Shown here in pieces: positions 5,722-60,780 of a DNA stretch of 64,000 nt (the first letter of the stretch is position 1; every line of letters begins with the position of its first letter). The notes under the pieces are model-generated. The model was not told the origin of the DNA, ran no database searches, and saw only the letters and a list, made by a program, of their open reading frames with translations. This stretch comes from Bilabrum cf. latius (lineage: Eukaryota), in contig OZ237745.1 of NCBI GenBank assembly GCA_965178125.1, forward strand, positions 1,178,001 through 1,242,000, in the 5' to 3' direction. Both the position numbers and the translations under genes were made by a program.

Positions 5722-8566
5722 TCACAGATCCACGCCCCGCTTGGAGGCCGCCTCCTCGTCCAGCCTCCTAAACCTCCTCTCCACCTGCTTGAGGTCCTCG
5801 TACAGGCTCTTTATCTTCCTCTCCCGCTGCATCCTCGTTCTCTGCGAGGCGCTGCGGCAGGGATTCACCGTCCTCGTGTGGTTGTCTTTGTACACGCGCC
5901 CAACGTGCTCGAAAAACTCTCCAAAGGTCTTCCGGATGTCCTCGAATCCGCCGCTCGCGTACTGCGCCGCCTCGCTGCCGACCGCAGCCAGCGCCGCGTC
6001 CACGCCCCCTGCCCCATCCGAGCCGAACCCCTGCTCGGCGATCGTGTCAAGGAAACCCCTGCCGAAGCCAAGCAGCAGCTTGTGCTGGAAGCTGGCGCAT
6101 CCCTCGTTGTCCGCCGCTCGCACGTACCCGCACAGCTCGTCGATCTCATCCGGCGTGAAGGTGACCTCGTACAGCAGCCGCCCGTTGCCCGCAGTGGCCA
6201 GATAGAGCATCAGGTTGAAGTCCCTGCAGCGCTGCAGCATCGAGTCTCGCATCAGGCCCATGGCCCCGCCCTCCCCAGTCACGGCCGCCTCGTCTTCCAG
6301 CCCCGAGCTGCCCTGCCGTCGCATCCACAGCGTCTGCAGGTTGCCTGCCACCCGGTGGTTCCTGTCGTCGATGGGGAACACGCGCCTCCTGCACTGCTGG
6401 ATGGAGGGCACCGCCTCCACCCCGTCCTCGTCCCGCCTGCTCATCACGGGGAAGTAGGACCGCAGCATGCGCTCGTAGGGCATGAGCTCCTTGATGCCCA
6501 CGGGGGTCACCAGGTACGCGCAGTCGAACAGCTGCGTGGTCAGCACGCGGTTCGCAAGGTCACCAGGCTTGGTGGCCACCACGGGCTTCTCGGATCGGAT
6601 CATGAACGGGTTCCTCGACTCGGCGGTGGCTGTCTTGGGCAGGCCGAGGTGACCTGCCCTCTGCAGCTGCATGCCCTGGTCGGATATCTAAAAGGCTTGC
6701 GTGGATCGGTACGTCTTGGTCACCTCCCCGCTCGAGTTGCGCAGCGTCTCGACCATGAACACGAGCGTGGTGAAGAACGGCCTCTCCGCCTGCTGCCTGG
6801 CAGCGAAGCACACCTCCGAGGCCGTCAGTGGGCTGGTGCCCTCCTCCCTGTAGGGCGCTGACATGAGGCAGCCCACCAGCTCCAGGCCCAGGTTGCCCGC
6901 GATCCTGTCCGCCCACCGCTGCTGCTCCTTCGAGTCGTCGTCCTGGAGGAGCAGCAGCCGCTGCTCAAACCCGAGCTGCCTGGGCTCGTACACGACCTCC
7001 ACCTGCACCAGGTCAGGACGCTTGCGATCGCCCACCACCGTGCCGTACAGCCACGCAAACCTCCTCTTGTGCAGCGGCTGGTCCAGGAACGACTGCAGGC
7101 TCACCTTCACGACCCTGGTGTGCCCGATCCTCTGGAAGCCAAGCGCCACTTGGTGCTTCTGCATCCACTCGCGCAGCTCACCCATCGTGCGGATGCTGGG
7201 AGGGGGGCGGTCCGCATCCGGGAGGTCCAGCTGCGCGGGATCCACGGGTGCATCGTCGCTGGCCGTGCCGTCATCGACCATGCCCTCCCCGCCCGCACTG
7301 CCCCCGCCTGTACCACCCTCGTCCTCCTAACCACTACCACCGTCGCCGTCGTAAACTCCACCCTTGCCGCCCCCGGGAGGAGTAGAGGAAGGGCCAGACC
7401 CACGAGCGGCGCCCGCTGCACCGCCGCTGGTGCCGCTACTGGCAGCAGCGCCTAGCCCCACTCCTTTGCCACTATCTGCACCCCCACCCCAGCTCCCGCT
7501 CCCACCAGCGCCCGCCGAGTCCCCTGCCCTAGCCCTAGCCCCCCCCGCCGCTGCCCCGCCGGCCGCCGCCTCCGTCGATTGCGCCGCCCGGGGCGGCAGC
7601 ACCTCTACGTCCAGCTCTGTGTTGAGCCTGTTATTCTCCAGCTCAAGCTGCGGCCCTCCCAGGTCCCCAGTGAGGGGCCTCTCTGGGTGTCTCCACCGGT
7701 CCAGGTCTGCCCTCCCGATCCCCCTCGGAGTGAGCTCGATCTGTTCCCCGGTGGGCCGGTGGCTGGCCTTGAACATGCCCCGCCACTTGACCGCCACTCT
7801 CTCCTGGAGCTGACCCACCGTCTCCGTCTCTGGCACCTCGAAGCGGTAGTCCGATTTGGGCGGGTCGAGGGCCGCGCGGGGCGTGAGGCCTTTGGTCCCC
7901 ATCGGGGGCGGGTGCAGCACGAAGGACACGATGCCGCGCGCCTTGCAGTCGTCCAGCTGCTCTTGGATCGTTCTGCGATGCGAACGACTCGCAAGAGGAC
8001 TAGACCTAGTGTGGAGGGCGCCCTGGTGCAAGCGGCGAACCGTTTTGCGACCAGCAAGCAGCCGGCAAAATGGCTCGGCACAACGGCACCATGTCGATAA
8101 ACAGGTGTAATATTGACAACTCACTTTGGTCGCGAAGCACCAGTTGCGCTTGGGGCCGGTGCAGGGGCAGCGGCTGGTGCCGGCGCGTCTGCTCGACTGG
8201 TCACCTCCTGGGGATGGCATATGTACACAAACGCCCCTTTCTGCGAAATTCCAGAAGCAAACCTCGAAAAAGAATCTGGTCAAATTAAATGGAGGCAGTA
8301 CCCTTGCAGATCCAACATAAATGGCTCACGCGAGGCGAAAAAGTTGCGAGCGGTTGGTTCTCATCCTCGGGCAGATCCACCGCAGGATCGACGTCATCGA
8401 CGGATTTATTATGAAGATTGTCGTTTGATAACGATGCAAATACGCGAGTTGGTGGATACGGCAGCTCCAACAGACTTTTGGCAGTGTTAAGAGTGTCCTT
8501 CGCCAGGTCCACCTTGATGCGCTGGATTGAGCCGTTTGAGAGCTTGCATCGAAGCACGTGTGACAT
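5722..8566 (-). CDS. NPL4: Nuclear protein localization 4 homolog (Cdc48/p97 cofactor); 3 exons: 8566-8330, 8240-8125, 7972-5722
   Basis: N-terminal UBL-like segment (MSHVLRCKLSNGSIQRI). MPN-like core with RFAWLYG, VEVVYEPRQ, LGLELVG, LTASEVCFAARQQ and AF(TAG)ISDQGMQL. Two GT-AG introns restore the frame. In-frame TAGs at 7327 and 6688; ends at TGA 5722. Confidence 0.88.
7973..8124 (-). other. Spliceosomal intron 2 of NPL4 (152 nt, phase 2)
   Basis: GTGAGT donor and CATCGCAG acceptor; splicing gives ...RPK|TIQEQ in frame. Confidence 0.75.
8241..8329 (-). other. Spliceosomal intron 1 of NPL4 (89 nt, phase 0)
   Basis: GTGAGC donor and TTTCGCAG acceptor; removes the TAA at 8285 and joins LATFSPR|KGAFVYI. 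Confidence 0.75.
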
Positions 8567-8778
8567 CAACACGCAGAAATTGTACGGCTCTCAGAATTTA
8601 CCGCAACTTGACGACGTTATACCAGCAGATACACGCTTATTTTTGCGTATTCTAGCCCGGAACACGATCTCCAGCATGTGGTTCCGCACGTATGCGCGGC
8701 GCCTATGTGGTTGCAACCAGTAGCTGTTTAGTTGGCCCTGCATCTCTTCGCTGCCTTTTTGCGGGCCAGGCCGGCCCG

Positions 8779-11433
8779 ATGGCCGGCCATGATTCAAAAT
8801 CATCAAAATTGTTACTGTGTGGAGACGTGTGTGGAAGATTTGAGCAGTTTAGGGATAGGATGAACAAGTTGAACGCCTCAAAGAACGGTCCATTTGACGC
8901 AGTGCTCTGTACCGGCAATTTCTTGTCAGCAACGGAAGATGCAAAAAGCTCCATGGAGCGCTTGGCGCATGTAGCAGATTCGATTGCTCTACCGGTGTAC
9001 TTTGTGGCTGGCGCTGAAAAAGGGAACTCTGAGTACAGAAAACTCTTGGTTCATGGCGGTGGTGAAGTTGCCCCAGGTATTCATTATCTCGGTAATTCAG
9101 GAATATCTGAGGTGGCAGGCATGGTGGTGGCATACGTTAGTGGCGAGGAGCACCCGATGCAACCGGTTGCAAGCAGTGATAAGGCAGCTTTGGCGGCAGC
9201 AGTTGCCAGCTCGGATGGCGAGATGCCAGGCGATGCCAATGGTGAAAGCGCCGTTGCGAAGCTGCCCAGGCTGCCAGTATCACTGGGATCCGCTGAGCAC
9301 GATGCCTGCGTGAGCGCGCTGGCTGGCAGGATGGAACGAGCAGCAGACGAGGCCGCTCGCTCCCCCGCGGCAGGGACCGCCAGCGAAGCCGCTGGCAGCC
9401 GCCCATGGCGGCGCCCCGCCCAGCCGGTAGACATCCTAATCACGTCGGAGTGGCCCGCGGGCTTCCACCTAGGGGTGCCCAGCGATGGCCTCCCATCCGC
9501 CAGCGACCTAGGGCTGGGCCAGCACCAGCACGCTGAACCTGCCTCGATCGCCGACCTCGGACCGCTGCCCCCCTCCATCGCGCCGGCTGCTGCGACTGCA
9601 GATCCCTCACTGGGTCCTTCACTTGGAGCTGCAGGCACTCCGGCGGCCACGGCTGCCGCTGCATCGGACGACTCGCCGGCAGTTGCAGCACTATCAGGTG
9701 CACCCGCATCGGGTGCAGCCTCGTCCTCTTCCTCGTCCTCTTCCTCGTCATCTTCCTCTTCCTCATCAGCGCCCAGTGACGGCACGGGTGACCCCAGCCA
9801 GAACGGCAGCAAGGCCGCACCTCCCGTGCTGCCTCCCGTGCTGCCTCCCGTGCTGCCTCCCGTGCTGCCTCCCGCCCTCGCGTCACTGCGGGCTTGCGAG
9901 CGGGTCGGCTCCGCGCGCGTGGCCAGCCTGGTGAGGGCTCTCAGGCCGCGGTACCACCTGTGCGGCGGGGGCGTGGACCTGCACTACCAGCGGGCGCCCT
10001 TCGTGCACGCAGGGAGCGCCAGCTCGCAGGATGCAGCCGTCTCGGGCTATTGCCGCATGATCGCCATGGCGGCAGTGCCCGAGCCGCAGCCCGTTGCGCC
10101 TGCCGCTGCTGATGGCGCAGCAGCAGCAGGGGCACTTGCCAGACCCAAGAGGGGGAAGAAGGGCCGCTGGGTGCACGCCCTCAAGCTGACCAGCTGCGCG
10201 GACGAGCCGGCCGGAAGCGTCAAGGCCCCGGCTGGGTGCACGCCCTCCCCCTTTGTTCCCCAGGTGCTCATGATCCCAGGGCTGGGCCCCTTGCTGCCGA
10301 CTCGGCCGTCGATGGCAGCTGCGATGAGCAGGGACCAGCGAGGGGGTCCGGACCTACCGGGGGCTGGAAGCGCCAGCTGGGAGGAAGGGGGCCGCGGGCA
10401 TGTGCCTGCGGACGAGCTGGCGAGCCGTCCCGGGGCGGGGCAGTTCTTCTTCCAGCAGGGGAACAAGGGGGGGAGGAAGCGGCCCAGAGAGGACGGCCGC
10501 GGCGGGGGCAGTAGCGGCGTCTTCGGCTAGGACGGCTAGGACGGAGAGAACGGGCGCGACGGGGCCGGCAAGCGTCCTCGGGTGGACGCCGCGATGATCG
10601 CTGGGATCGCCGGTGTCAGGATGGAGGGGAAGGGCCTTGCTGCGAGCGGGAGGAGGAGACTGCCCCCCGGGGCCGTGTCCGACTGCTGGTTCTGCACGTC
10701 CTCGCCCTCGTTCCAGGCCAGGCTCGTGTGCAGCATCGGGGAAGAGGCGCTTCTTACGCTGCCCAGAGGCCCCATCAGCGACACGCACTGCCTGGTTGTG
10801 CCGGTGCCGCACGTGGTGTCCGTGGCGGCGGCTCCCAGCGCGGTGGTGCAGGAAATGCGGGAGTACATGGCATGTCTGCGCAGGTGGCACCGGTCGCAGG
10901 GCAGGCGGCTCGTGTGCTTTGAGAGGGTCGTGCAGACCGTCGGCTCGCACCACGCGCACGTCCAGACCGTTGGGGTGCCTCTACAGGCGGCGAGAGGCGC
11001 GGTGGAGCTGTTCGAGTCCCGGGGCGGAGCCCTGGGGCTGGGCTTCGTGAGGCTGTCCGCGGGGCAGTCGCTGGCCCACGCTGCGGGGAGAGACCAGTAC
11101 ATGTGCGTGGAGGTGGACGGAGGGGAGGAGGACGGCGATGGGGGCGCGCTGGTGCCCATGACCCGCCTGTTCTACAAGGTGTAGAGCGGGGTGAAGCTGC
11201 CCTACCAGTTCGGGAGGGAGGTCTGCTGCGAGCTGCTCAAGGTCCCTGGCCGCAGGCACTGGAAAGACTGCCTGCAGAGCGAGGAGGAGGAAGAGGCGGC
11301 TGCGGGAGCCTTCAGGGACTCGTTCGAGCCGTTCGACTTTACCGTGCAAGAGGAGGAAGAGGAGGAGTTGGGCGGGGGCCAGGAAGGGGCGGAGGGTGGC
11401 CACTCTGCTGTGGCTGCCTCAGAAGAGGGCTGA
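8779..11433 (+). CDS. CWF19L1: CWF19-like protein 1 (Drn1 family: degenerate metallophosphatase plus CwfJ/HIT-like C-terminal domains)
   Basis: KLLLCGDVCGRF, KNGPFDAVLCTGNF, VDILITSEWP, LRPRYH, CWFCTSSP, LPRGPISDTHCLVVPVPH, HAHVQTVGVP and LPYQFGREV..LL. In-frame TAGs at 10528, 10537 and 11182; ends at TGA 11431. Confidence 0.9.
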
Positions 11434-46400: not shown

Positions 46401-46834
46401 CCCGCCGTCAACCACCTCAGGCTCGCTGCCGTCGGGCCTGTCACAAGCTCGCTTGCCGTGATCGCAGCCACTCGGGCGTTATCTGTAGTCCTTTCCAAAA
46501 AGGTCAGCAGCGGCTCCACAGAATCTCTTGCCAATCGAAGCGAGCTCTCTGGCCCCAAAGCAGCAGTTTGCTCGAAATTAGCCGAGATCTGTTGTGGCAC
46601 TGGTGCCCCCGTGCGGAAGCACCGCGCCTAAATTCGGACGCACTATCTGCTTTGATCCATCCAGTGGCTGCCGTCCCGTCTGTGCTTGACCTTAAGCACA
46701 ACAAATCGTGCCGTCTGAAGCTCAAAAAGTGCATTGCAGTCTTCAAAAGAGTCAAACGTGCGAACCAAGCGCACTGATGCCTTCGAAAGCGACCAGTATG
46801 CGCATGCAATGCTACATATGGTATCTTTGTCCAT
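43412..46834 (-). CDS. APH/hydroxylysine-kinase-like phosphotransferase fused to a C-terminal peptidase M23 domain
   Basis: Kinase motifs VVLKV, LHGDMNEANVVV and WLDFDDA. M23 motifs HLGVDVFAPAGSPVFAPFDGTV, DYGPCVVLEH, YTLYGHL and GGWPPHLHFQ. TAGs at 46643, 46628, 45668, 44516 and 43811; ends at TGA 43412. Confidence 0.85.
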
Positions 46835-46951
46835 GTAAACCGGGTAGAATGGCTCGAATATTGGCCAAGAGGCACTCTGGGGATTCAGGTTCCGCAAGCT
46901 TCATCATCAGCCACACAACTAGCTAGACCTCCGCCACAGAGAATAACTCGG

Positions 46952-48637
46952 ATGAATTCGGGCTTGGCGATAGTAGCATATTCATGTGCCCCAGTCGTTG
47001 TGGCGTTGGCAGCCTTCCTGGCTAGGTCTTGGGTCACTTATGGCTTGGCGTGCGGCCTTGCCCTGTTGCCGTACTTGGCAGCCAACAGCGGTCTCCTAGC
47101 GATGGATGGGGTGACAGGCTAGCTAGCTACATTGATAGTTGGTTGTTTTGCGGCTGCACTTCTAGTAATTGACGCATCTCGGTCTTCTTCGAAGGGGTCC
47201 GAGCAACAGCGGGCCGCCGAGCTGGCCCGCAGAGCTGCCAAGCACGAAACGACGGTAAGCGCCGCGGATCTGGGAGCAGCGCAGGGCGCAGAAGATGCTG
47301 CAATCGCACTCTACAGAGCATCGACCGTAGCTCTGGCCTCTAGCCAGGCCGCCGGAGGCTCGTCGTCCGCTTCGCGTCGCTCGACTGGGCAGGGAGCTGC
47401 CGGCTAGGACGCACCGCGCACGCCTGCCGGGGGCAGAGAGCTTGCATCGCTAGCTTCTGTCCAGAAACGCGCTCCACCTTCTGGTATTGTCACGAAACAA
47501 GCCGCCCCTGAGCCCAAGGTGCCCCGGTGCGGCCCCGACGGCGCCCCTTTGGTGCCCCCGACCCTACCCGCGGCGCTGGAGGCGTGCGCGCTGCCCAAGA
47601 CGGACCTGCCCGAGGGCAAGCACTGCTGGTGCCCCATGGACAGCCGCGTCTTCAAGCTGCGCGGCCGCACGTACGTCAAGGACCGCGTGAAGATCCCGGC
47701 CATGCCGCCTCTCTTCGATCTCGTGAGGGTGGAGACCTTCCGCCACTCGGAGCCACTCTACGACGTGGCGGGGCAAAAGGGGTCTTTCTTGCGGGCCGCG
47801 AGGGCGGCAGGAGACATACGCAAGTACCTGGTGGTGGTGTATTAGACCCCGGCCAAGGATGTGCACATGGTGCTCTACTTCGCGGTGCCCACGGATGCGT
47901 TCGAACCGGACGCTGTCCGCGACCGGATCGGATGGTGGAGGGAGCGGGCGAGGGGGCTGGAGGGCGGATCCGATCCCAAGGTGGAGGGCGAGACGGATGA
48001 GCTGCTGAGTGCCGCTGGGGCGCTGGAGCAGCGGCTGGCGGGGGCGAAGCGCGCCTGGGAGCGGTTCTGGTCAGATGACGTGGAGGGCAGCCCCTACCGC
48101 AAGGAGAGGTGGAAGGTCATCCCCAAGATCGCAGAGGGGTCCTGGTTCGTGAGGAACTCGGTGGGGACCACGCCCGCGCTGCTGGCCCGCAAGATCGAGC
48201 ACTCGTGGTCCAAGGGGACCGGGCCTGTCCCTGCTGGAGCTGGGGCTGGGGCTGGGGCTGCCTCTGCCTCTGCCTCTGCCAGTGGATCCGGTGCTGACAC
48301 TGCTGCAGGTGCCGGTGCTGATTCCAAGGGAACTCAGAGCCGCCGGGTGAAGAGCGAGGAGATGGGCTACCTAGAGATCGACTGCAACGTGTTCTCGAGC
48401 CAGATCGCCATGTACCTGGTGAGCCTGATCGATAGCGCGAGCGAGTCTCTGGTGATCGACCTGGCCTTCACAATCGAGGGGCGGGCCGAGGATGAGCTGC
48501 CCGAGGCAATCTTGGGGGCTGTGAGCCTGCGGTACATCCACCTGCCCAAGTGCAAGCTCATCGAGCCCGGTGATTACGGAGTGACGTGGCAGAGGAGCAT
48601 GCCGGAAGGGGCGCGGGGAGGTGGCAAGGCCTTCTGA
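46952..48637 (+). CDS. EDR2 C-terminal (DUF1336) domain protein with N-terminal hydrophobic segments
   Basis: FKLRGRTYVKDRVKIPA, VVVY(TAG)TP..MVLYF, RWKVIPKIAEGSWFVRNSVGTTPALL, YLEIDCNV and IDLAFTIEGRAEDELPEAILG. TAGs at 47120, 47405 and 47843; ends at TGA 48635. Confidence 0.88.
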
Positions 48638-48926
48638 AGGAGCATGCCGGAGGGGGCGAAGGGAGGCGCCGGGAGGAATCGGACTTCTTAAAGAAGCCAA
48701 TGTTTCGCGCCGGATTCTTTTGATTCGCTTCGACTTCTGGGCTGCTGCCAAGTTGTGCTCGGCAACAACGCGCTGGCTGGCTTCCGATTCCTCCACCTGG
48801 CGGAACCGGAATCGGGAGCTGCGCGTCACGCGCGAGGATCCACCTCGAACACCTGCGGCCGTGATTGATCCATCCAAATCTACTCGTACCCTCTCGTGTG
48901 CCAGAACTCGCCACACGAAACTTGAA

Positions 48927-51671
48927 ATGCCCTTGGGCCGCGCGTTTGCTGCCATCGCGGTGCTCCTGGCCAGCTCGCAGTTTCATCGAGCGGAAGCGTA
49001 CCCTGTCAGTTTCAACGCCGATGATGATAATACAGGCATCCATGTGAATATATTGAGGAACGCAAGGCCGTGGGGCACGCCAGGCACGCCTTGGGAGGGC
49101 AGCATTGATGTCGATTCGACCAGTGGATTCCCGGCAGAGGATGCCGGCGTCACGATCGATGTCCTGGTTTACAACTCCAGTCAGTCGTACTTGGATTCCA
49201 ACCCAGCGATTTAGTTTGCTCGTCCAGATGTGGCACAAAGGGCGCAGTTAGAGTACGGATACTAGCTGCGCGCGATGTGCACCCCAAAGGCAGACCCGCC
49301 GGTGGTCAACGTGCAGCCGCACAACTCCGGGGAGTCGTACAACACGACGTGGGACCCAGCAACGGGACTACTTACGAGTAGGATCGTCCCATCATCGGAC
49401 CGCACTTCCCTCATGCTCTCGTTCACGAACACGAGCCGCGGGTGCCGCGACATCGTGCTGGTGATGCCGGGCTTCGACCCCATCAAGGACGCGGCGGCGA
49501 TCAACCCCCAGTACCTCAGCAACATCGAGATGTTCAGCAAGTCCGCAGGAGCAGCCACGGGCGAGGTGTGGATGCGGACGATGGGCCTGCGCGCCACGAA
49601 CGGCAACCCCGAGGAGGACTGGGCCGACCGCCCGCTGCTCTCCTGGCCCTCGTTCCGGTGGGGGGTCCCAGTTGATCCCAAAGGGCCCCCGGGGTCGGAC
49701 TGCTCCAACTCGTCCTACCGAGGCACCTGTTTCACGGGCAAGCCGAACAAGGCGCACCCTTTGTTCGGAGGCGGTAAGGTGCTCGCCCACGGGTGGCCGT
49801 GGGAGGCAGTCGTCGACCTCGCCAATAAAGCAGGTCTCAGCCTCTGGATCAACGTGCCTGCCATGGCCACTGACGACTACATCGAAAATCTAGTGCGGTT
49901 AGTGGACGGGAGGCTGCACCCTGACCTGAACGTGATGGTGGAGTACTCCAACGAAGTGTGGAACGTGAGTCACTGAACGGACGATGACCGCCTGCCTGCA
50001 TGTGCTGGAGCTGCCGGCCCGCAACCGCGACCCCCATCATCCCCCCATGTCTCCCCCCCTCTTCCCCCCACCGTTTCTGCCGTCGGGGTTCGCCTTCTGC
50101 GGCCTGTCACGATCACCCACCTTGTGCGGCCTGTTACGATTACCCACCTTGTGCGGCCTGCTACGATTACCCACCTTGTGCGGCCTGTCACGATCACCCA
50201 CCTTGTGCGGCCTGTCACGATCACCCACCTTGTGCGGCCTGTCACGATCACCCACCTTGTGCGGCCTGTCACGATCACCCACCTTGTGCGGCCTGTCACG
50301 ATCACCCACCTTGTGCGGCCTGCTACGATCACCCACCTTGTGCGGCCTGTTACGATCATACCTTGTGCGGCCTGCTACGATCACCCACCGCCCCAGTGCT
50401 ACATCCATAGCCCTCTTCTTCCGCAGATGGAGTTTTCCCAGGCGCACTACCAGCTCTACATGGCCAACGCCTCCGTGGCAGTGCAGGGCGACCCCCTCGG
50501 CCTCAACTACACCACCCCCAATGGGGATGGGGGCGAAGGACCCATCCAGTGGGCGTACCGCCGCACGGCGTATGATATCGTCCGAGTCCAGGGGGTTATC
50601 GAGAGCACGCGGGGGGCTGGGGCACCACGGCCCGGCCCCAATGGGAGGTGGAGGCCTGTTCTGGCAGGACAGCTCATGGGCACACCTCAGCTGGAGGGAC
50701 TCAGGTACCTCTGGGAGTCTCGTGGGATCGAACCCGACAGCAAGCTGCATGCCACGGCCAATGCGCCCTACTTTGCCGTGTGGCCAGCCAAGTCTGCGAG
50801 CCGGGATAGCAGGAACTGCTGGTCCAACCTGACTGAGGACGCCGTGCTTGAGGGTCTTTCGACCTCTGTGGAGAGGAGGTTTGACCCGGCCTTGCCTCCG
50901 CGGGGAGACCACAAGCAGTTCATCACCTACGCCAGGCTGTTCAACCTGTCCGTGTTCTCATATGAGGGCGGCCCCGACACGTCCTGCTTCTTCAACCACA
51001 ACTCGAGTACAGAAGCAAAGAACGCAGCCAACCTGAACCCCAAGATGCAGCCCATCATCCAGCAGTACCTGCAGCACCTGCGTGCCATGGGGGAGTACAC
51101 GCTCTCGTACTTCACCTGCTGCACGGGGGCATGGAGCATGTACGGCTAGTGGACGCTGGCACCGAACCAGACCACCTACGCTGACGCACCCAAGCGGATC
51201 GGGGTCGAGGCGGAGCTCGGGGCCAGCGAACCTTCGCAGGGGTTCGGCGCGGCCCTGCCGGGCACTGTGGACGCCACGCTCGGGGCGGTGGATGCAGACG
51301 ACGAGGATCCCCCTTCCTCAGGGCCCTGGTACCACCCCTCCGTGGGCAAGTCGAGGTACTATCCCCTGCGGCCGGTTAGGTGGGGGCAAGGGGGGGCCAC
51401 CATGCAGCTGAGGCTCAACGTGAGCGTGCAGACGGGACCGGGGACCGTCAACGTGACCACGTCCGGCGACCCCTCCTCCTGGCAGTCGGTGAGGGTGCCT
51501 CTCGGGGAACAAGGGGGGTGGGCGCTCACAGACCCGGTGTCCATCGAAGTGCGGCCCCCTTTCACCACGCTGCAGGTCAGGATCGCGCCCCAGGAGCCGG
51601 GGCGGGCGGGGATGGCGGGGTAGGCTGGGAACGTGACGATCGGCGGGTTGGTGTTTGGGAGCAGCGTGTGA
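48927..51671 (+). CDS. Secreted clan GH-A glycoside hydrolase-like protein (possibly GH51-related); exons 48927-49964 and 50427-51671
   Basis: Signal peptide MPLGRAFAAIAVLLASS..AEA. WINVPAMATDDYI, VEYSNEVWN|MEFSQ (candidate acid/base Glu) and YEGGPD (candidate nucleophile). Intron 49965-50426 (GTGAGT..CCGCAG). TAGs at 49212, 49263, 51147 and 51621; ends at TGA 51669. Confidence 0.75.
50094..50389 (+). repeat. 27-bp tandem minisatellite (~11 copies, consensus CCTTGTGCGGCCTGTCACGATCACCCA) inside an intron
   Basis: Head-to-tail copies with few substitutions and no unique spacers. Confidence 0.95.
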
Positions 51672-51918
51672 TGGCAGTGAAGGATGGGGAGGAGACGAGG
51701 TGGTTGGATATGACAACTGCAATGCAATGCACACTGTGCGTCTGCCGCTAAATTCCCGTTTTCAATTCGGTGTGCAATCGCGCGTGGTATGCCATGCCAC
51801 GCCTTCCCGCCCCGCACGCTTCGCTCCAGCCATTCCCTCTGCTGTGGCGCCCCTCACTCCTCTCTCGCCTAGTCTTTATGTCTTTGCAATCCCGCTCATT
51901 CTACGTTTTTTTGTTTCT

Positions 51919-53289
51919 TTAGTGCGCCGCGGACTCCACCACCGGCAGGGGCGGCAGCTCCACCGCCGCGTCCCCCAAGGAGGGGAGGATGTTCCTGCCG
52001 AGTGCGCTGCCCACCAGTTCCACCGCCGCATCAGCTGTCCTGTCACCGTCCTCCTCCGAGTCTGCAAGCTGCGGGTTCACCTCAACCATGTCCATGGAGC
52101 CCAGCAGGCCCGTCTCGAACAGCGACTCGCACACGTAGTGCGCCTCGCGGTAGCTCAGGCCCCCGGGGACCCTCGTCCCCGTGCTGGGGGCAACCGAGGG
52201 GTCGCACGCGTCGATGTCGAAGCTGAGGTGCAGCGGGCGAGGAGAGCTGCCCCCCGGCCCCGTCAGGTGCTCCACCGCCCTCCTCATCACCTCCCCGATG
52301 CCCAGCCTGTCCACGTCCGTCATAGTGTAGGCCCGGATGCCCAGCTGCGGGATCACCTTGCGCTCGTGGTCGTCTACGTCGTTGAGCCCGATGTACACGA
52401 TGCGGCTGGGGTGCAGCGCGGGCCACGCCCCGAGCTTGCTGATGCGGGGCAGCAGCGGGGCGGGCACGTGGCCCGACTGCAGCACCTGCCTGGCCACCTG
52501 CGCTGCCTTGCTGTTGCCTGCCTTGTCGGCCTTGTCCGCTGCCCTCTGGGCCTGCTCCAAGACGAACTTCTTCCACTCCGCCTCGTCCCACGGGGCGCTC
52601 TCTTCCCCCTCGCACATCCACTCGAGCCCGGGCATGGCCCTGGGGTCCGCCAGCCTCGAGGCGAAGGCAACCGGCATGCCGTGCATGTTGCCGCTGGGGC
52701 TCGCGCTCGGCGTGTTGATGTCCGCATGGGCGTCCACCCAGATGACGCCGGCGTCGGGGCGCGCGGCAAGGATGCCTGCCAAGGTGCCCATCCCGATGCT
52801 GTGGTCCCCTCCGAGCGTCAGCACGAAGTTGCCGTCCTCGGCGGATTCCTTGACTGCGTGAGCAATCCGTTCGCTTGTCTTTCCGACCGCCACAGAGTTG
52901 CGGCCACCCTCGGCGCTTGCGTCACCACGTCCCGGACGAACCGGATCAACGTCTCCCTAGTCAACGAGACGCCAGCCAAGACTTGTCACTGCGTTCCGCA
53001 GCCCACGTTGGCGTATCAGCTTCGGCCCTCGGTCCACTCCGTCTAGTGGCTAACCGAAGCTGAAAGGAGCCCCAACGACATGCACTGTCGAAGGTGCTTT
53101 CACACCGCTTTCGTCTTTGACCTACTCAGAGGGGACAAACGGCGCATCGCTGAAACTTCGGGATTGGCCGCCGCAGTTGCACATAGGAGTGTTCCGAAAC
53201 ACAGAATCTTTGCCTCTGGGCAACGTATGTGCGGACACTCTTCTGCTAAGACCTCGTACAGACCTGTACGATACTAGTCTAGAAAACAT
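51919..53289 (-). CDS. Arginase with probable mitochondrial presequence
   Basis: VVGAPFSFG(TAG)PLDGVDRGP, LGGDHSIG, WVDAHADINTP, SGNMHGMP, HLSFDIDACDP, TGTRVPGGLSYRE and DMVEVNP. Arg/Ser-rich N-terminus MFSRLVSYRSVRGLSRR. TAGs at 53122, 53050 and 52957; ends at TAA 51919. Confidence 0.95.
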
Positions 53290-53516
53290 ATCTCAACAAT
53301 GCGTTCAAGCTATTGACTAGATGTCAATTGTGAGCCTCGACATTTTCGTTCCGGTTCGTAGCAGAAAACTGCACGGTACAAAAAAGCAAACCGCTATTAT
53401 CAACATTCGAGAACTCTGCTCGATATTGGAGCGCAAGACGAGCATCCTGTTTATTTGTCATCTTTTTTCGGTACATAGTTCGCATGTTCAGCGGTGGAAT
53501 TGTGAATTTGACCGAA

Positions 53517-55468
53517 ATGGCCGATGGCTATGGAGATAGTGCGGTGAGCTGGTCATGACAAGCAATGTATGCCATGTACTCTCTGCTTGCGGATAGTGCA
53601 GCAGCGGTAGTACGTCTGTATGATGTCATTCGAGACTGTTTATTCCTTCTGCCGCGTCTCTTGAATTGCCCCGCAGTAGACGAGCGCGGACAAGCAGCTG
53701 AGATTTTCAGATTCCGGGGCCGGCGTCGACCTCGGCGGTAGCATGGGACCAGGTGGTCGGTCTCCCGGCGAAATCCCCAAGTCTATTCTTCGATCATATG
53801 TTCAACTTAATGGTCCGCACAGGGGGTCGCCAAGCTCCTTCGGTCGGGCTAGCTCGAGCCGAGACTCCCCTGACGCTGTTCGGCAGAGAAGGAAAGCGGC
53901 TGGCCAGGCCGCTTTGCACGCAATTGGAACACACAAGACGCCACCGCGTAGAAATCACGTGCCGCCAATGCTGCCCGACGCATTGACGCGTTCTTCTTTC
54001 TCGTCGTCTGCAGAGCGCTAGTCGGGTGCAGCCGAACCCCCATCGGGAGACCACGGGCAGGGCCCGCAGTCGCAGCTGCCGGCAGGCAAGCACAGCTCAA
54101 AAGACACCCCCATGGAGCATGTGAGGTAGGCGTACGACCCGCCGGGGAGTGCGACCATCTCGCTCTCCTCCTCGCCGCAGGGCGCCAGCAGCGGCAGAGA
54201 GAGAGAAGTGGCCAGGGCTGGACCCGGTGCACTGCACGACAGCGCCGTCCCGGGCTCTCCGAGCGGTCTCCGGTCTCCCCACGCCCCCCGACAGGAGCCT
54301 TCATCTTCCTTGCTGGCCTCTGGCGGCGGGAGCTCGCGCGGGGGATAGGCGGCGTAGCCCGAGTCGCCCGAGCCCGCCACCGGCCTGCGAGCTAGCGCGC
54401 ACGATGGATTGCGCTCGTCACACCTTGCGAGTGGACCCTCTGTTGGGGTCAGAGCCGGCGGAGGCATGGGTCCGGGGGGTCCTGGCGGCCTGCGCCTCTC
54501 AAATGGAGGCCTCGGATTCGGAATTGGAGCTGGGAAGGGGGTCGCAAGGGGGTGGCGGCACCAGGGCACGGCTGCAGGTCCAGGGGAGGAGCCCGCTGTG
54601 CAGCGGTCGCTGGGTCCCGGGGGTAGGCAGCCTTCCGTTGGTGGCCTGGGGTCGCAGGGTGCACTGCACGGCAGCGGCGCCAGTCGTGGTCCCGGCGCGT
54701 TGTGGCGGGCTAGGCGGGGCAAGGGCAGGGAGCTCGCTGCGAGGCGGGCGGGTGCATCGCACGGTGGTGCAGGCGGCGGGCAGCTGCCTGCACCGGCGAA
54801 AACGGGCGGGGATTCCAAGCCTAGGGCCCTGGGTGCCAGTGCCAGTGCCAGTGCCAGTGTCAGTGCCAGTGGCCGGGACATGGGCATGGGAAAGGGCATG
54901 GGCCGCGACTAGGACTAGCACTACAAAGATAATTAGGCGGGGATGCGTGGTAGGAGTAGTAGGGAGGCAGGTAGTGTGGAAAGAGGGAGAGGGGAAGGGT
55001 TGGATGCTTCGCTGCTGGATGCGGTGCTTGGACCGGAGGCGGGGGGGCATGCACCGCCACAAGCACCAGCAGCCCGTGAGCATGCAGGAGCTGCAGCACC
55101 CGCTAGAGCATCGTCCTAGGACCAGGCAATGCAGCGATTGGCAGGAAGAGGAGCAAGAGGGGAAGGTGCCCAGGGCGTGGGAGGGAGGAACAGCGCGGGT
55201 GCATGCGAGGACGAGAGCAATTAGAAGAGAAGGGATGACGATGAGGAGGAGGAGGGCGAGGATGGGGGCGAAGGGGACGGTGGGAGGGCCAGCGGCAGCG
55301 CTTCATCTCCTGCTCCTCCTCCTGCTCCTGCTGCTGCTGCTGGCGGGGCGATCCGGCACGGCTGGGTGAAGAGCCCTGGAGAGGGGCCTACTGGCAGCGG
55401 GAATGGTGGCTGGGTGCGGGCCTCGGCTCTTTGGAGGGACGGGCAGGGACCAGGAGAGGGGCAAGGGC

Positions 55469-55518
<50 letters not shown>

Positions 55519-55842
55519 CCTGGGCAAGACGTGGCGGTGTGCGACTCGGAGTCGAAAGTGCCACCGAGGCGTGTGACTGCCGCTTCTGGAGCCCACCACA
55601 CCGTCTCGGCCCCAGATGCCTCACGTGCTGCTGGGAGATCGGGCGATGCGGCAACGGACGAGGCAGCCATCGCGTCCGCCCGTTAGATGCACGAATTCCT
55701 GTGCGCCGCGACGCAGGAGCTGGCTGAGCGGCTGCAGACAGCTCTCGAGCGGGCGGAACGGGCAGAACGAGAGCTCGCAAGGAGTGAGAGGGCGCGGGAG
55801 TACTGGCGCGGGGAGGCTGTGCGGTTGAGAGACGAGCAGTAA
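53517..55842 (+). CDS. Hypothetical low-complexity protein with C-terminal coiled coil; probable exon 1 at 53517-53543 and intron 53544-53676
   Basis: One frame from 53677 to TAA 55840 with about 10 in-frame TAGs. GTGAGC donor and CCGCAG acceptor give a phase-0 join. Contains a (CAG)n tract at ~55471-55515. Confidence 0.6.
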
Positions 55843-56427
55843 GCGAGCCGATGGCATTGGCAGCCCGAGCGTGGCAGCAGCTACTAGTAGGTGGGGGCGG
55901 AGAGGAGTCCAGGAGAATATAATGGGCTGAATAAATGAATGATTAGCATATTGTATGTTGCAGTGTATGCAGTATGGTCATCCGGAAGGGGTGCGAGTCA
56001 ATTCCGATTTTCTTTGCCATTCTAGTAAGGTGCAGTTTCGTGCCTCCGGCTCCAGGAACAAGACGGGGAGTCATCTGGTCTGAGAGGCCGGAGGACCTGC
56101 GCTTCATAGCTGGATTTCGTATCGCTACATAGTCTTGACTAAAGAAAAGACATATAGGCAGGAATCTTGCCACTTTCGAGTGAGGCAAAGGTGTTTAGAC
56201 TCGAGTCCGCAATTTTGAGGTGCACGGTCTCTATCCGTCATTATCGACTGCACCCTAACGCGTCTATGTATGCTACACCATAGATTAATGCACTATTTTT
56301 GTGTCCGACATCGCGCAGACTCTGATAAACGGCGCATTTGGGGGCAGTTTTTGCTCGTCGCTTCGCTGCCTGCATTGTGCGTTCTTTCAAGGCATCTGAC
56401 ATAGCCAGCGGCAAAGCCTTTGGAGGG

Positions 56428-58174
56428 ATGCAAGCTTCCAGGCTACCAGACGGTTACGTTCCACTTTCAAGAGATTCATGGGACACTGCCGTTTTGTACC
56501 GCTTTCCTAGCAGTCTGAGTGTCCGGGACGAGCAAATCGATGTGGCGACGTTGCCGCTGCATCGCCTGTCATTTTGGCGCGCCTTTGGTCACAAAGGGGC
56601 ACCCCCAGCGTAGCAAGCGTATGATAGTAGAGAATCAAGAGAACCAGCGAGGTTTCACGATGTAAAACCGGAAGGCAACGATACCCTCGGCTTCGTTGGC
56701 GTCGAGGCAGAGATTGCAGGAACGACGGCATCATTTCACGCTACAGTCCCCATTACCGATGATCCTGCGTGGCCTCATGGGTATCATTATAAACATCAAC
56801 TGTAGGATAATGGTAGTATGGCTTCCCCGTTGATTGCTGCCCTCGCATACGACATCGAGATTCGGCATCGTGGGCTCAAGCGCGTTCGCCGACTAAACTT
56901 TGATAACTAGTTGTGGCTGAGTCTATGGACAGCAGTGCGGAACAATCAAGGCATACACATCGGCATTTTGGACGTCCTGAGGCATAAGGTATGCCCTGCT
57001 TGGTTCAGCCGGATCGCCAAGCTGCACGGGCCGCCGAGAGTTTCCGCAGCTGGGAACCGTGGTTCGCAGGAAGGCGACAAAGGGCCAGATCAGAAGTAGG
57101 CATCGCGTTTAGGATCAATAATTAGTGGATATAGCCCAGCATCAGCCGGGCCAGCGCTGTCTGCGTCTGGGCCCAGACCGAGCGCATATGACGCGGCGCG
57201 CGCTCACTCCGGTTTCCAAGCTGGCCGGGGGGCAGCCCAAGGGCCAGCTTCAGCAGGTGAGCAGCAGCCTTTGATGTCTTAGTTCGGGTCCACGGCTGCG
57301 GAAGCAGCATCGGACCCGTGGCAGTGGCTCACCGACGGCGACGTGCAGGAGGGCCGGACACAGGGTCATGTCCAGGGGATTTTGAGCAGCTCCTCGCGGG
57401 CTGCGATTGGCGACACGGGGCATCCTCAGTCATCCAGCAGCAGTGGGACTCATAACGCACCATCTTCCTCTTCTTCTTCCTCTTCCTCCCATGCCTCGGC
57501 AGGAGGAGGCGCTGGCGATGGTAAAGCACCGGCTGGTACCCCGGCTGGTGCCGCTGATGACGCCGCCGCTGGGCTGCAGCTGCTCAGCCAGCTGGCTGAC
57601 ACGGATGTTGGCCCAAGCAGCGGAATGGTGGCTAGTCCCGTGCAGCAGGGCATGGAAGGCAGCCCGCGCGGGGGGCAGCTGGCTCTGCATCACGCAGGGC
57701 CGGCCATGGGGCAGGGGCAGCCGTCCCCGCCCATCGGGCCTCATAGTGGTATTGCAATGCACCCACAAGCAGGCTCAGCAATGGGGAACGCGGTGATGCG
57801 GAGCAGCATGGGCACTGGCCCGGGGATGCATGGTGACCCGCGGCAGATGCAGATGCAGATGCCGTGGGGCCGGCCCCAGCTGGAGGAGGCGGAGCTGCAG
57901 GCGAGGCACGCGAGACTGCTGCAGATGCGGCGGTGGCAGCACCAGCAGATGTTCTGGCAGCAGCAGTAGCAGCAGCAGTTGCACGCACAGGAGAAGATGC
58001 TGTGGCAGAGGCAGATGCACCTGCAGGCCGTGGCCAGGGAACAGCAGCGCATGGAGGAGGAGCTGTAGCGGCGGGGGCAGGAGCTGAACAACAGGCGGCA
58101 GGCGCTCGCGGAGGACTCCTCCCGGCCACGGAACGACTCAACGACCGATGCACAGCACGGTAGAAGTGACAAAG

Positions 58175-58210
<36 letters not shown>

Positions 58211-60780
58211 TTTCTTCCGGTGATGCAACGGCAAGCAAGGCGGAATCCGACGCCGGTGTGTCGTCCTGGTCCAAGCGGCTCCTGCAGAACCAGGGAGGAG
58301 GAGGAGCGGGGCAACGCACCGACGGGACTGCGGATGCAGGCGCGAGCGATGGACAGCAGCGGCCCGCACCGGGACCCGGAGCCGAAAACCGGCCCCCTCG
58401 CACTGCAGCCGAGCTGGACGCGATGGTCCAACGACTCGAGCTCCCGGTGGCGGAGTGCAGGCCAGACGAGGCCCCACCCTCGGAGCATGGTGTGGTGCCC
58501 CAGGTGCAGGGCACGCAGTCCAGGCGCATCGTCGCGCCCGTGAGGCTGGTGGAGCTTCCAGGGAACAGCGGCACGGCGTACCCTCGGGTCATCCCGCAGG
58601 TGGACTGCGTGCGCATCCTGTCCCAGGCCTAGACACCCACGGGCACCCCCATGGCTGGGACTCCCATGGGGCTGCCGAGGGGGGACTCTGGCTCCGGGAC
58701 TGCAGCGACAGCGACAGGGGCAGGGGCAGCGACAGGGGCAGGGGCAGGGGCAGCGACAGGGGCAGGGGTATCTTCCTCCGCCTCCCCTCATGTAGGGCCA
58801 GGCGCCGAGGTTCCCGGACCCCGGCAGTGGGGCGCGAGCGTGGAGCCCGGGCTCCGTGGCTCGGCAGCGTGCATGGAGGCCATGCTCCTGTGCGCGCCCT
58901 GGAGCTCGCACGAAGACGCCATGGACCGGGCCAGGGCCGTCGCGCAGCAGGCCAAATCCCATGGGGATAGTCCGGGCTCCTCGGGCCCCGTGGAGGCAGA
59001 GGGCCCCCTGACGTGGAGCATGTCTGGGGGCAGGAAGGTGGTCCTGGTCCTCGTCAGGGGACCCGAGGCTGCCGAGGGGCTGCGGCTGCTGGAGGACATC
59101 GGGCCCGCGCTCCTTGAGAGGCAGAGCCTGAGATCGGGGGCGGCAGGGAACAGTGGGAGCGGGGAAGACGCGTCTTCGGCCGCTGCGGTTCTCCAGCGAC
59201 AGGTGGATCGGACCGGGGAGCAGCAGGGGCAGGGACGTGGACAGGGACAGAGAGGCCAGCATGAGGTGGCTGGCCTCCTCCGGCCCGGCACTGCCACTGC
59301 CCCAGGCGCAGGCACAGGAGCAGGCACTTCTGACGGAGACGCCTCCAAGACCCCCACGGGTGTGCCCCCCAGCGCCGTGCCATTCCTACCCGACTCGGGT
59401 CTCAGCGTGACCGACGGGTCAGCCCCGGCGCCGGGGGCCCCGTCCGCGGACAGGACTGCCCAGCCCGACCGGGCGCAGGGGCCCAGCCGGGGCACCCCCG
59501 CAGACCGCAGCGGCTCCGCTGCTCTGAGCCACTCACCAGCGGGATCCGGCGGCCTGTCGTCCCCCTCAGGGCTGGGGCAGCCTGAGGGCACCGCCCCGCC
59601 GGCTTTCGCAGAGGTGTCCAAGGCAGGCAGCTGCGGCAGCAGTGGCGGGGCCGGATCCCGGGCCCTGGCTGCAAGCTCGGCCAGCAACGGCGAAAGCGAG
59701 GAGCGGGGCAGTACGGAGTCTCCCAAGAGTCCTAAGTCGGTGACTGGAAGCAAGGTGGAGGGTGCATCGCATGGCAGCGCTGAGGTGTCTGAGTCCGCGT
59801 CTGCGTCTTCGAAGGGCACCGGCCTGCTGGACGCAGTCGGCGCCTCGTCCTCGTCCGCTTCTTCGTCGGCCAGCAGCCACCCGCAGGAGGGCGATGGCGG
59901 CCGCGGCAACGAGAAGGGGGCTTCCGGTGTGGGCATGGGCAGCCGGCTGCGGAGGCGGGTGCCCAAGCTGATCCGCGGGCTCTCCGTGGAGGTGGATGGG
60001 GACGAGAATGGAGGTGTGTATAGGGGCGACGGATAGAAACAGGATGGCAGCGAGGCGGGAACCAACGGCCATGCAGGTGATCTCGACGATGTGGGCACAT
60101 ACACAGCCGGTGCCGGCAGCCGTCCGACCGTGTGGCTCGTGGTGCTGCGGCTGGGGGCCGTGCACTTCAGGCACAGCCGAGGGTGGGTGCGGCTGGGCGG
60201 CCCACGGCTCGGGGAAGCCCCCCCGGTGATTGTTCCCAGAGGCATCGCAGCACTGGCCCAGGCCCAGGCACAGGGGCGAGGGCGAGGGCAGGCGATCCCG
60301 CCATTCATGCCGCAGCACTTGATGCACGCGCAGTCGCAGCAAATGCAGGCAGGCGCGGCCGGGTCTCCTGGCATGGGGCAGGGACATGGGCATGTGCAAG
60401 GCCATGGTCACTGGCAAGGACGGGTGGTGGCCCGGGGCCCAAGTCCCAGCAAGGTGCTGCCTGGGGGGGCGGGGCCTAGTGGAGCGCAGGGATACCCCCA
60501 GTACGGGGGCGGGTGGGGCGTGGGCGCCGGGGCGCCGCCACTGGCTCTCGGGGCTCAAGGGAGCGACATGCCTCCCGTACACGGCAGGCAGCAGCGGACC
60601 GTGCCCCAGACAATGGTGCTTGACGCGCTCCGGCGGGCCGTGCAGCCGCACGAGCTGCAGGCCCTCGCGGCCAGAGCGCGGGAAGCGAATCAGGGGGCGG
60701 CGCATGCGGGCCTCGGCGACAAGCGCGTGAGGGAACACCCTGATTCGGAACAGGCACAGGGCAAGCGGAGGAGGTTATGA
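56428..60780 (+). CDS. AP2-like domain protein (~1450 aa), Gln-rich and low complexity; putative transcription factor
   Basis: ATG 56428 to TGA 60778 with 9 in-frame TAGs. GFVGVEAEIAG..FHATV..IAALAYDIEIRHRGLKRVRRLNFDN matches the AP2 pattern (GV..A, AA.AYD, G..LNF). Confidence 0.68.

Follow-up and report, generated by a model that had tools for sequence, protein, structure and literature searches.

In a 64,000 nucleotide stretch of the genome of Bilabrum cf. latius (contig OZ237745.1 of assembly GCA_965178125.1, positions 1,178,001 to 1,242,000 of the forward strand; this whole stretch is called the window here and is numbered from its first letter), a gene for an arginase is interrupted at codons 56, 80 and 111 by in-frame TAG triplets that, to judge from the gene and its homologs, almost certainly stand for glutamine (Gln). 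We conclude, with a probability of roughly 0.92, that UAG is read as Gln throughout the nuclear genes of this organism, with UGA (in most genes) and UAA as the stops, a code of the type of NCBI translation table 15. Translation with that table gives Q56, Q80 and Q111 in the arginase. Coordinates of the features discussed are collected in Table 1.

With TAG read as X, the arginase frame is open from an ATG at 53289-53287 to a TAA at 51921-51919, giving 456 residues, and the 456 codons contain no TGA, no frameshift and no internal TAA. The predicted protein matches the Pfam Arginase family (PF00491) with E=4.7e-68 and 230.1 bits (cut-off 22) over profile positions 2-277 of 280. Its best match in the PDB is human arginase-2 (ARG2; E=7e-76), with arginase-1 (ARG1) at 1.5e-72 and agmatinases at 1e-11 or weaker, placing it nearer to the arginases than to the agmatinases. 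In an alignment of 12 arginase homologs (alignment A1), picked by rank and named status from 120 listed of 5,210 scored, the predicted two-manganese ligands H163, D186, H188, D190, D358 and D360 are all invariant columns; the His and Asp residues of the motifs GGDHS, DAHxD and SxDxDxxDP are what we take, from arginase structures, to be those ligands. A preliminary description of this DNA, made from its letters, had stated that the Mn-binding motifs are intact and that the gene does not look like a pseudogene, and the alignment agrees: the motifs fall in invariant columns and nothing except TAG interrupts the frame. By all tests run, the encoded sequence is that of an ordinary mitochondrial-type arginase. 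Its Arg/Ser-rich N-terminal extension is likely a mitochondrial presequence, and the enzyme is probably intact and, by prediction, mitochondrial.

Codon 80 lies in the segment VVGAPFSFG-TAG-PLDGVDRGP (written GTC GTT GGG GCT CCT TTC AGC TTC GGT TAG CCA CTA GAC GGA GTG GAC CGA GGG CCG), where the letters of the TAG at 53050-53052 of the minus strand are as the preliminary description gave them. That description had also placed the triplet at a conserved Gln column, and the column indeed holds Q in 12 of 12 A1 homologs and is not variable; in the PDB alignment the triplet stands opposite the second Q of GAPFSQGQ in human arginase-2. Since Q is found in all 12 homologs at codon 80 and the gene is intact, TAG is here almost certainly read as Gln. 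Beyond the earlier account, codons 56 and 111 are also TAG, the pattern is region-wide, and a second organism shows the same.

Another deeply conserved column is found in P0007, a gene for which 7 of 41 matches were aligned: its codon 546 is TAG, and Q occupies this position in all four homologs that cover the site. A public protein that is 98% identical to P0007 (P0132) likewise has Q opposite a TAG of the window. P0132 belongs to a set of public protein fragments (among them P0131, P0137 and P0140) that share 78-98% identity with P0007; lengths in the set include 49, 55, 161 and 281 residues. Some of these P0007-like fragments start or finish near TAG sites of the window, and they look like proteins of this lineage that gene callers have cut at TAG.

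The second organism is known from metagenomic sequence. Among those listed, the best match to the arginase is a metagenomic protein 75% identical to it (P0008), spread over two metagenome contigs, of which L002 carries the N-terminal part and L001 the C-terminal part. Gene order and orientation are kept over five genes between window positions 46778-60780 and L001/L002, namely the EDR2_C-domain gene, the neighbour gene at 48585-51671, the arginase, an open reading frame (ORF) at 53665-55842, and P0006; GC content is 57-58% in this relative versus approximately 62-66% in the window, and protein identity is 26-33% for two low-complexity genes. Opposite codons 56, 80 and 111 of the arginase, the relative's gene is written CAA, CAG and AAG, respectively. 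The orthologous pairs yield 56 positions at which one of the two sequences has TAG. Fifteen of these are well aligned (at least 7 identical residues among the 12 neighbours), and the residue facing TAG is Q in 10 of the 15. The frequency of Q is 2.6% among well-aligned residues and 3.8% in the ten ORFs described below, and the binomial probability of at least 10 in 15 at q=0.06 is 1.4e-9. The relative's own TAGs stand opposite a Q of the window in 2 of 5 well-aligned cases. Read with the standard code, L002 has a longest ORF of 279 codons; this rises to 1,963 once TAG counts as sense, compared with 326 when TGA does and an unaltered 279 when TAA does. In L001 the longest ORF goes from 293 to 647 codons when TAG is sense, and at a GC-rich control locus (L003, 72% GC, arginase 46% identical) it stays at 770. 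As far as its contigs can be read, the relative uses the same code as the window organism.

Within the window, in-frame TAG was counted over ten ORFs: the arginase, a HECT ligase, a CwfJ/CWF19-like gene, an EDR2_C-domain gene, a PQ-loop gene, an M23-peptidase-domain gene, and P0003, P0004, P0006 and P0007. Six of these reach the curated cut-off of a Pfam family, P0007 is supported by its homologs and P0006 by the relative's ortholog; P0004 has a TRAF zinc-finger match below cut-off only, and P0003 is without outside support. There are 68 in-frame TAGs in 15,347 codons, 67 of them downstream of the first ATG, as compared with 74 and 80 in the off frames. In-frame TAG is thus as frequent as off-frame TAG, and the triplet is not avoided in frame. 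When TAG is taken as sense (stops TAA and TGA only), the longest ORF of the window, whose GC content is 54-75% per 2 kb, goes from 1,017 to 6,196 codons. This giant ORF encodes the HECT ligase; the other two frames of its strand have 52 TGA each, plus 4 and 2 TAA, and the Poisson chance of finding no TGA or TAA in it, at about 54 expected, is 3.5e-24. The ligase ORF is very Ala/Gly-rich and forms a single unbroken frame with no intron signs. None of the PDB alignments of its HECT region reaches a TAG.

In its behaviour, TAG in these ORFs resembles a synonymous Gln codon of low GC, separated from CAG by a single transition. The ten ORFs have 68 TAG (approximately 10% of Gln-type codons), 493 CAG and 90 CAA, and local GC is 0.638 around TAG as against 0.687 around CAG (p=7e-7) and 0.646 around CAA. 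TAG is about threefold enriched toward ORF starts, making up 19 of 82 Gln-type codons within the first 200 codons versus 49 of 569 elsewhere (p=3e-4). It also occurs within runs of glutamine, as in WQQQ-TAG-QQQ in P0006 and Y-TAG-TAG-QQQQ in P0003. The three TAGs of the arginase are confined to the lower-GC 5' third of the gene because TAG sits at lower local GC and is enriched near the 5' ends of ORFs. The same clustering, three TAGs within 111 codons in the lower-GC part of the gene, is what might be expected if the arginase were a pseudogene or carried sequencing or assembly errors, with its TAGs as true stops. This explanation has next to nothing left to recommend it: a lower-GC location is expected of a low-GC Gln codon, the 456 codons have no other stop and no frameshift and keep their metal-site motifs, the pattern recurs in all the other supported genes of the window and in the second organism, and the same letters occur in the contigs of four runs from three studies.

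These runs come from a public-run search in which the stretch was found in 11 runs of 6 studies, four of which (X1 and X5-X7) were compared over 50000-56000. A contig of the DNA-like run X1 covers 51555-55298 with no differing letters. The other three, which belong to two other studies, give gene-sized contigs (X5 51706-53322, X6 51746-53314, X7 51908-53321) with 0 other letters, 0 gaps, no joint within the arginase, and all three TAGs present. Their upstream ends lie within 8 bases of one another at a place where X1 continues, X1 crossing both ends of the gene; the shared ends hint, weakly, that the transcript starts approximately 33 nt ahead of the ATG, and the interval holds no other ATG.

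Removal of the TAGs from the mRNA by splicing, or their change by U-to-C editing, would leave the standard code in place, and introns do exist here. A 133-nt GT..AG stretch in the gene upstream of the arginase (53543-53675, plus strand) is passed over by one contig of X5, which joins 53542 to 53676; this joint suggests spliced RNA and an intron, and the genome is probably intron-poor yet not intron-free. A spliced transcript that skips codon 80 had been named beforehand in the preliminary description as one of the findings that would overturn its reading. The contigs of three further runs keep the TAGs, with no joint, gap or differing letter over 51706-53322, so no codon-skipping transcript and no sign of editing was found. 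Homolog alignments moreover run continuously through each TAG and leave no room for an intron, and editing that turned 68 sites, spread over 10 genes, into one product would, we believe, be unprecedented in the nucleus. We therefore regard removal or editing as hardly credible.

The reading of TAG as Gln must be tempered by several observations that weigh against it. That X5-X7 are RNA is a guess from software, X5 is itself rated 'probably DNA', and none of the listed runs is on record as RNA. Not every TAG falls opposite a Q: at arginase codon 111 none of the 12 A1 homologs has Q (they read K, L, T, C, L, T, R, H, M, C, N and M, the relative having K), and human ARG2 has F; codon 333 of P0007, in a Gly-rich low-complexity stretch, is V in a 92% identical protein; the TAG within the EDR2_C domain is V in 3 of 3 homologs (37-39% identical); codon 889 of the CwfJ gene is aligned to K and M in a variable column; and in the M23 gene TAG is aligned to S, Q and D. 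Homolog searches returned 2 matches for CwfJ, of no use in placing the organism, and 3 for EDR2_C. Among the well-aligned positions shared with the relative, the remaining 5 of 15 comprise one each of E, L, T, K and R, and at the 41 poorly aligned positions Q occurs twice, with 10 gaps and the rest mixed. A tRNA scan of the window and of L001/L002 found no tRNA genes. Two further results do not discriminate: at a length of at least 500 aa there are 52 long ORFs with TGA as sense versus 34 with TAG as sense, and the absence of in-frame TAA and TGA across the ten ORFs is a by-product of how an ORF is defined. ORF-length counts were accordingly rejected as evidence, since in GC-rich DNA TGA as sense inflates ORFs too, and the evidence rests on ORFs with outside support.

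TAG might then be a sense codon for some other amino acid, and Glu, Lys, Leu and Tyr are known meanings of UAG elsewhere. In favour of this, some TAGs stand opposite K, E, L, T, R or V in relatives, and the residue at codon 111 is aromatic in human ARG2 and presumably also in human ARG1 (Y). With the exception of the EDR2_C site, the non-Gln sites are variable or low-complexity positions, and no one alternative residue recurs opposite TAG across different genes. At the well-aligned ortholog positions each residue other than Q appears at most once against 10 of 15 for Q, two deeply conserved Q columns (12 of 12 and 4 of 4) are written TAG, and TAG both lies within poly-Q and interchanges with CAA and CAG from one organism to the other. 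An amino acid other than Gln is accordingly very unlikely.

TGA and TAA still terminate translation, as judged from where the ORFs end. The ten ORFs have 20 boundaries between them, 17 formed by TGA and 3 by TAA; eight ORFs end in TGA and two in TAA, the evidence on TAA thus coming from few genes, and none of the ten requires TAG as a terminator. The arginase TAA is followed by an A-rich, lower-GC stretch; were it sense, the frame would run on to a TGA at 51577-51579, past the contig ends of X5-X7. Because the arginase TAA coincides with the end of the relative's protein, and the next TGA lies past those contigs, the code is of the table 15 and not of the table 6 type. Taking TAA as sense lengthens the longest ORF of the window from 1,017 to just 1,135 codons, and no supported ORF needs an internal TAA. 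A UAR=Gln code (table 6) was rejected on these grounds, namely a TAA at a conserved C-terminus and the small gain in ORF length.

TAG could have a dual meaning, Gln inside genes and a context-dependent terminator near some 3' ends; stop codons with two meanings are known from Condylostoma, karyorelict ciliates and Blastocrithidia. P0003 has a TAG five codons ahead of its TGA, a TAG six codons past the arginase TAA is the next in-frame triplet of stop type, and ten genes are too few to argue against termination at some TAGs. Such a role is nonetheless improbable: the ten ORFs end in TGA or TAA with no need of TAG, the arginase TAA falls exactly at the column of the relative's TGA stop, and the TAGs are spread along the ORFs with enrichment toward 5' and not 3' ends.

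Should UAG be read as Gln as proposed, a tRNA-Gln with anticodon CUA would decode it and eRF1 would no longer recognise it efficiently, by analogy with other lineages that have such codes. The eRF1 gene does not lie within the window.

Table 1. Features of the window that bear on the reading of TAG, with their positions in the window and strand.
Feature	Position	Strand	Remarks
Arginase coding sequence	51919..53289	minus	456 codons + TAA; Arg/Ser-rich N-terminal extension; 3 in-frame TAG
Probable transcript	51706..53322	minus	extent of X5-X7 contigs (RNA nature guessed)
TAG codon 56, VPSE-Q-VKDESG	53122..53124	minus	N-terminal extension; CAA (Q) in relative L002
TAG codon 80, GAPFSFG-Q-PLDG	53050..53052	minus	Q in 12/12 A1 homologs; CAG in relative L002
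TAG codon 111, LVD-Q-GD	52957..52959	minus	variable column; AAG (K) in relative
GGDHS metal-site motif, residues 160-164	52798..52812	minus	G160, G161, D162, H163 invariant in A1
DAHADIN metal-site motif, residues 186-192	52714..52734	minus	D186, A187, H188, A189, D190, N192 invariant in A1
SFDIDACDP metal-site motif, residues 356-364	52198..52224	minus	S356, D358, I359, D360, D363, P364 invariant in A1
Arginase stop TAA	51919..51921	minus	same A1 column as relative's TGA stop
P0007	5722..8325	minus	2 TAG; codon 546 at conserved Q column
CwfJ/CWF19-like gene	8518..11433	plus	4 TAG
Giant ORF, 6,196 codons	13705..32295	minus	MIB_HERC2, SPRY, UBA and HECT domains; 15 TAG, 0 TGA, 0 TAA
P0003	37795..43107	minus	16 TAG; two directly ahead of QQQQ
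EDR2_C-domain gene	46778..48637	plus	3 TAG
Neighbour gene	48585..51671	plus	conserved, without Pfam match; two same-frame ORFs; 4 TAG, 3/4 opposite Q in relative
P0006	56329..60780	plus	9 TAG; ortholog of L002's 1,963-codon ORF

Compared with human ARG2 (8rgf, 1pq3), the window arginase is matched over the full domain and has all metal-site motifs, and differs by an insertion of approximately 60-75 residues. This insertion (residues ~226-288; 52426-52614, minus strand), charged and Ala-rich (EWKKFVLEQAQRAADKADKAGNSKAAQ...), sits between the second and third metal-site motifs, is common to the 75% identical metagenomic relative, and is absent in the other 11 A1 arginases. Where human ARG2 and the majority consensus of A1 read GLRDVD, the window arginase reads GLNDVD.

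Other features were observed near the arginase. The neighbour gene contains an in-frame TGA at 49974-49976, followed by 11 copies of a 27-bp unit (50093-50389) encoding repeats of VRPVTITHL. The ortholog in the relative can be aligned to either side of this stretch, lacks the stretch itself and has its own stop elsewhere; the stretch 49974-50400 is probably an intron or an insertion with a tandem repeat. A GTGCCA hexamer in 6.5 copies (54833-54871) attracts very many contigs in four runs, with a summed depth of 23,874 in X1, and is a repeat found widely in the samples or through the genome. At gathering threshold, an Rfam scan gave no match anywhere in the window.

Placement of the organism was based on a tree of a single gene, the arginase, with 33 sequences chosen from 120 listed for their rank and names. 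The window arginase and that of the metagenomic relative join at 100/100, and their sister clade, at 99/95 support, consists of two Cafeteria and three unnamed sequences. The closest named arginase among those listed is that of Cafeteria roenbergensis, 54% identical in A1. From this one gene tree we infer that the organism is a relative of the bicosoecid stramenopiles. Cafeteria roenbergensis, whose nuclear genome is approximately 70% GC (10.1101/751586), is likewise GC-rich; it differs in that the accessible part of its genome paper names a non-standard code for the mitochondrion only (10.1101/751586).

Changes of the nuclear genetic code are rare, and codes in which UAG and UAA have different meanings are rarer. 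The accessible portions of earlier accounts describe about eight lineages of the latter kind, four or five of them with UAG=Gln (PMC11687900). UAG=Gln with UAA as stop is given there for the fornicate Iotanema spirale, for the ciliate Protocruzia tuzeti and for two phyllopharyngean ciliate lineages (PMC11687900; PMC5304391), and UAG is reported as Leu in a rhizarian and as Ser in Scotinosphaera (PMC11687900). UAR=Gln (table 6) is used by many ciliates, ulvophycean green algae, Hexamita, Streblomastix and Amoeboaphelidium (PMC11687900); the window organism resembles these table 6 users in that TAG is Gln and differs from them in that TAA terminates. With Iotanema, Protocruzia and the phyllopharyngeans it shares TAG opposite Gln in frame, termination at TAA and TGA, and the uncoupling of UAA from UAG. 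It differs from them in that its arginase groups with sequences of Cafeteria-type bicosoecid stramenopiles and not with fornicates or ciliates, and in that its genome is GC-rich with TGA as the main stop. The arginase tree (one tree), the GC content and a presequence of mitochondrial type were the grounds for setting aside these known UAG=Gln lineages as the source of the DNA. The literature searched, which left subscription journals mostly outside, contained no paper on a reassigned nuclear UAG in stramenopiles or bicosoecids; the public runs date from 2025, and a description may exist or be coming. We tentatively propose, at somewhat less than even odds, that this is an independent and unreported origin of a UAG=Gln/UAA-stop nuclear code, in a lineage rich in GC, poor in introns and akin to the bicosoecids, with at least two members (the window organism and that of L001/L002).

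If true, stramenopiles would gain their first case of a reassigned nuclear stop codon, and a further, GC-rich lineage outside ciliates and metamonads would provide an independent data point on the capture of UAG with UAA kept. A genome in which TGA dominates among stops would also offer a natural test of codon-capture versus tRNA-driven models under GC pressure. Gene models, protein counts and homology searches that apply the standard code to this organism and its relatives would be wrong: that code splits the 6,196-codon ligase into pieces of at most 1,017 codons, and metagenomic gene callers would cut such proteins too.

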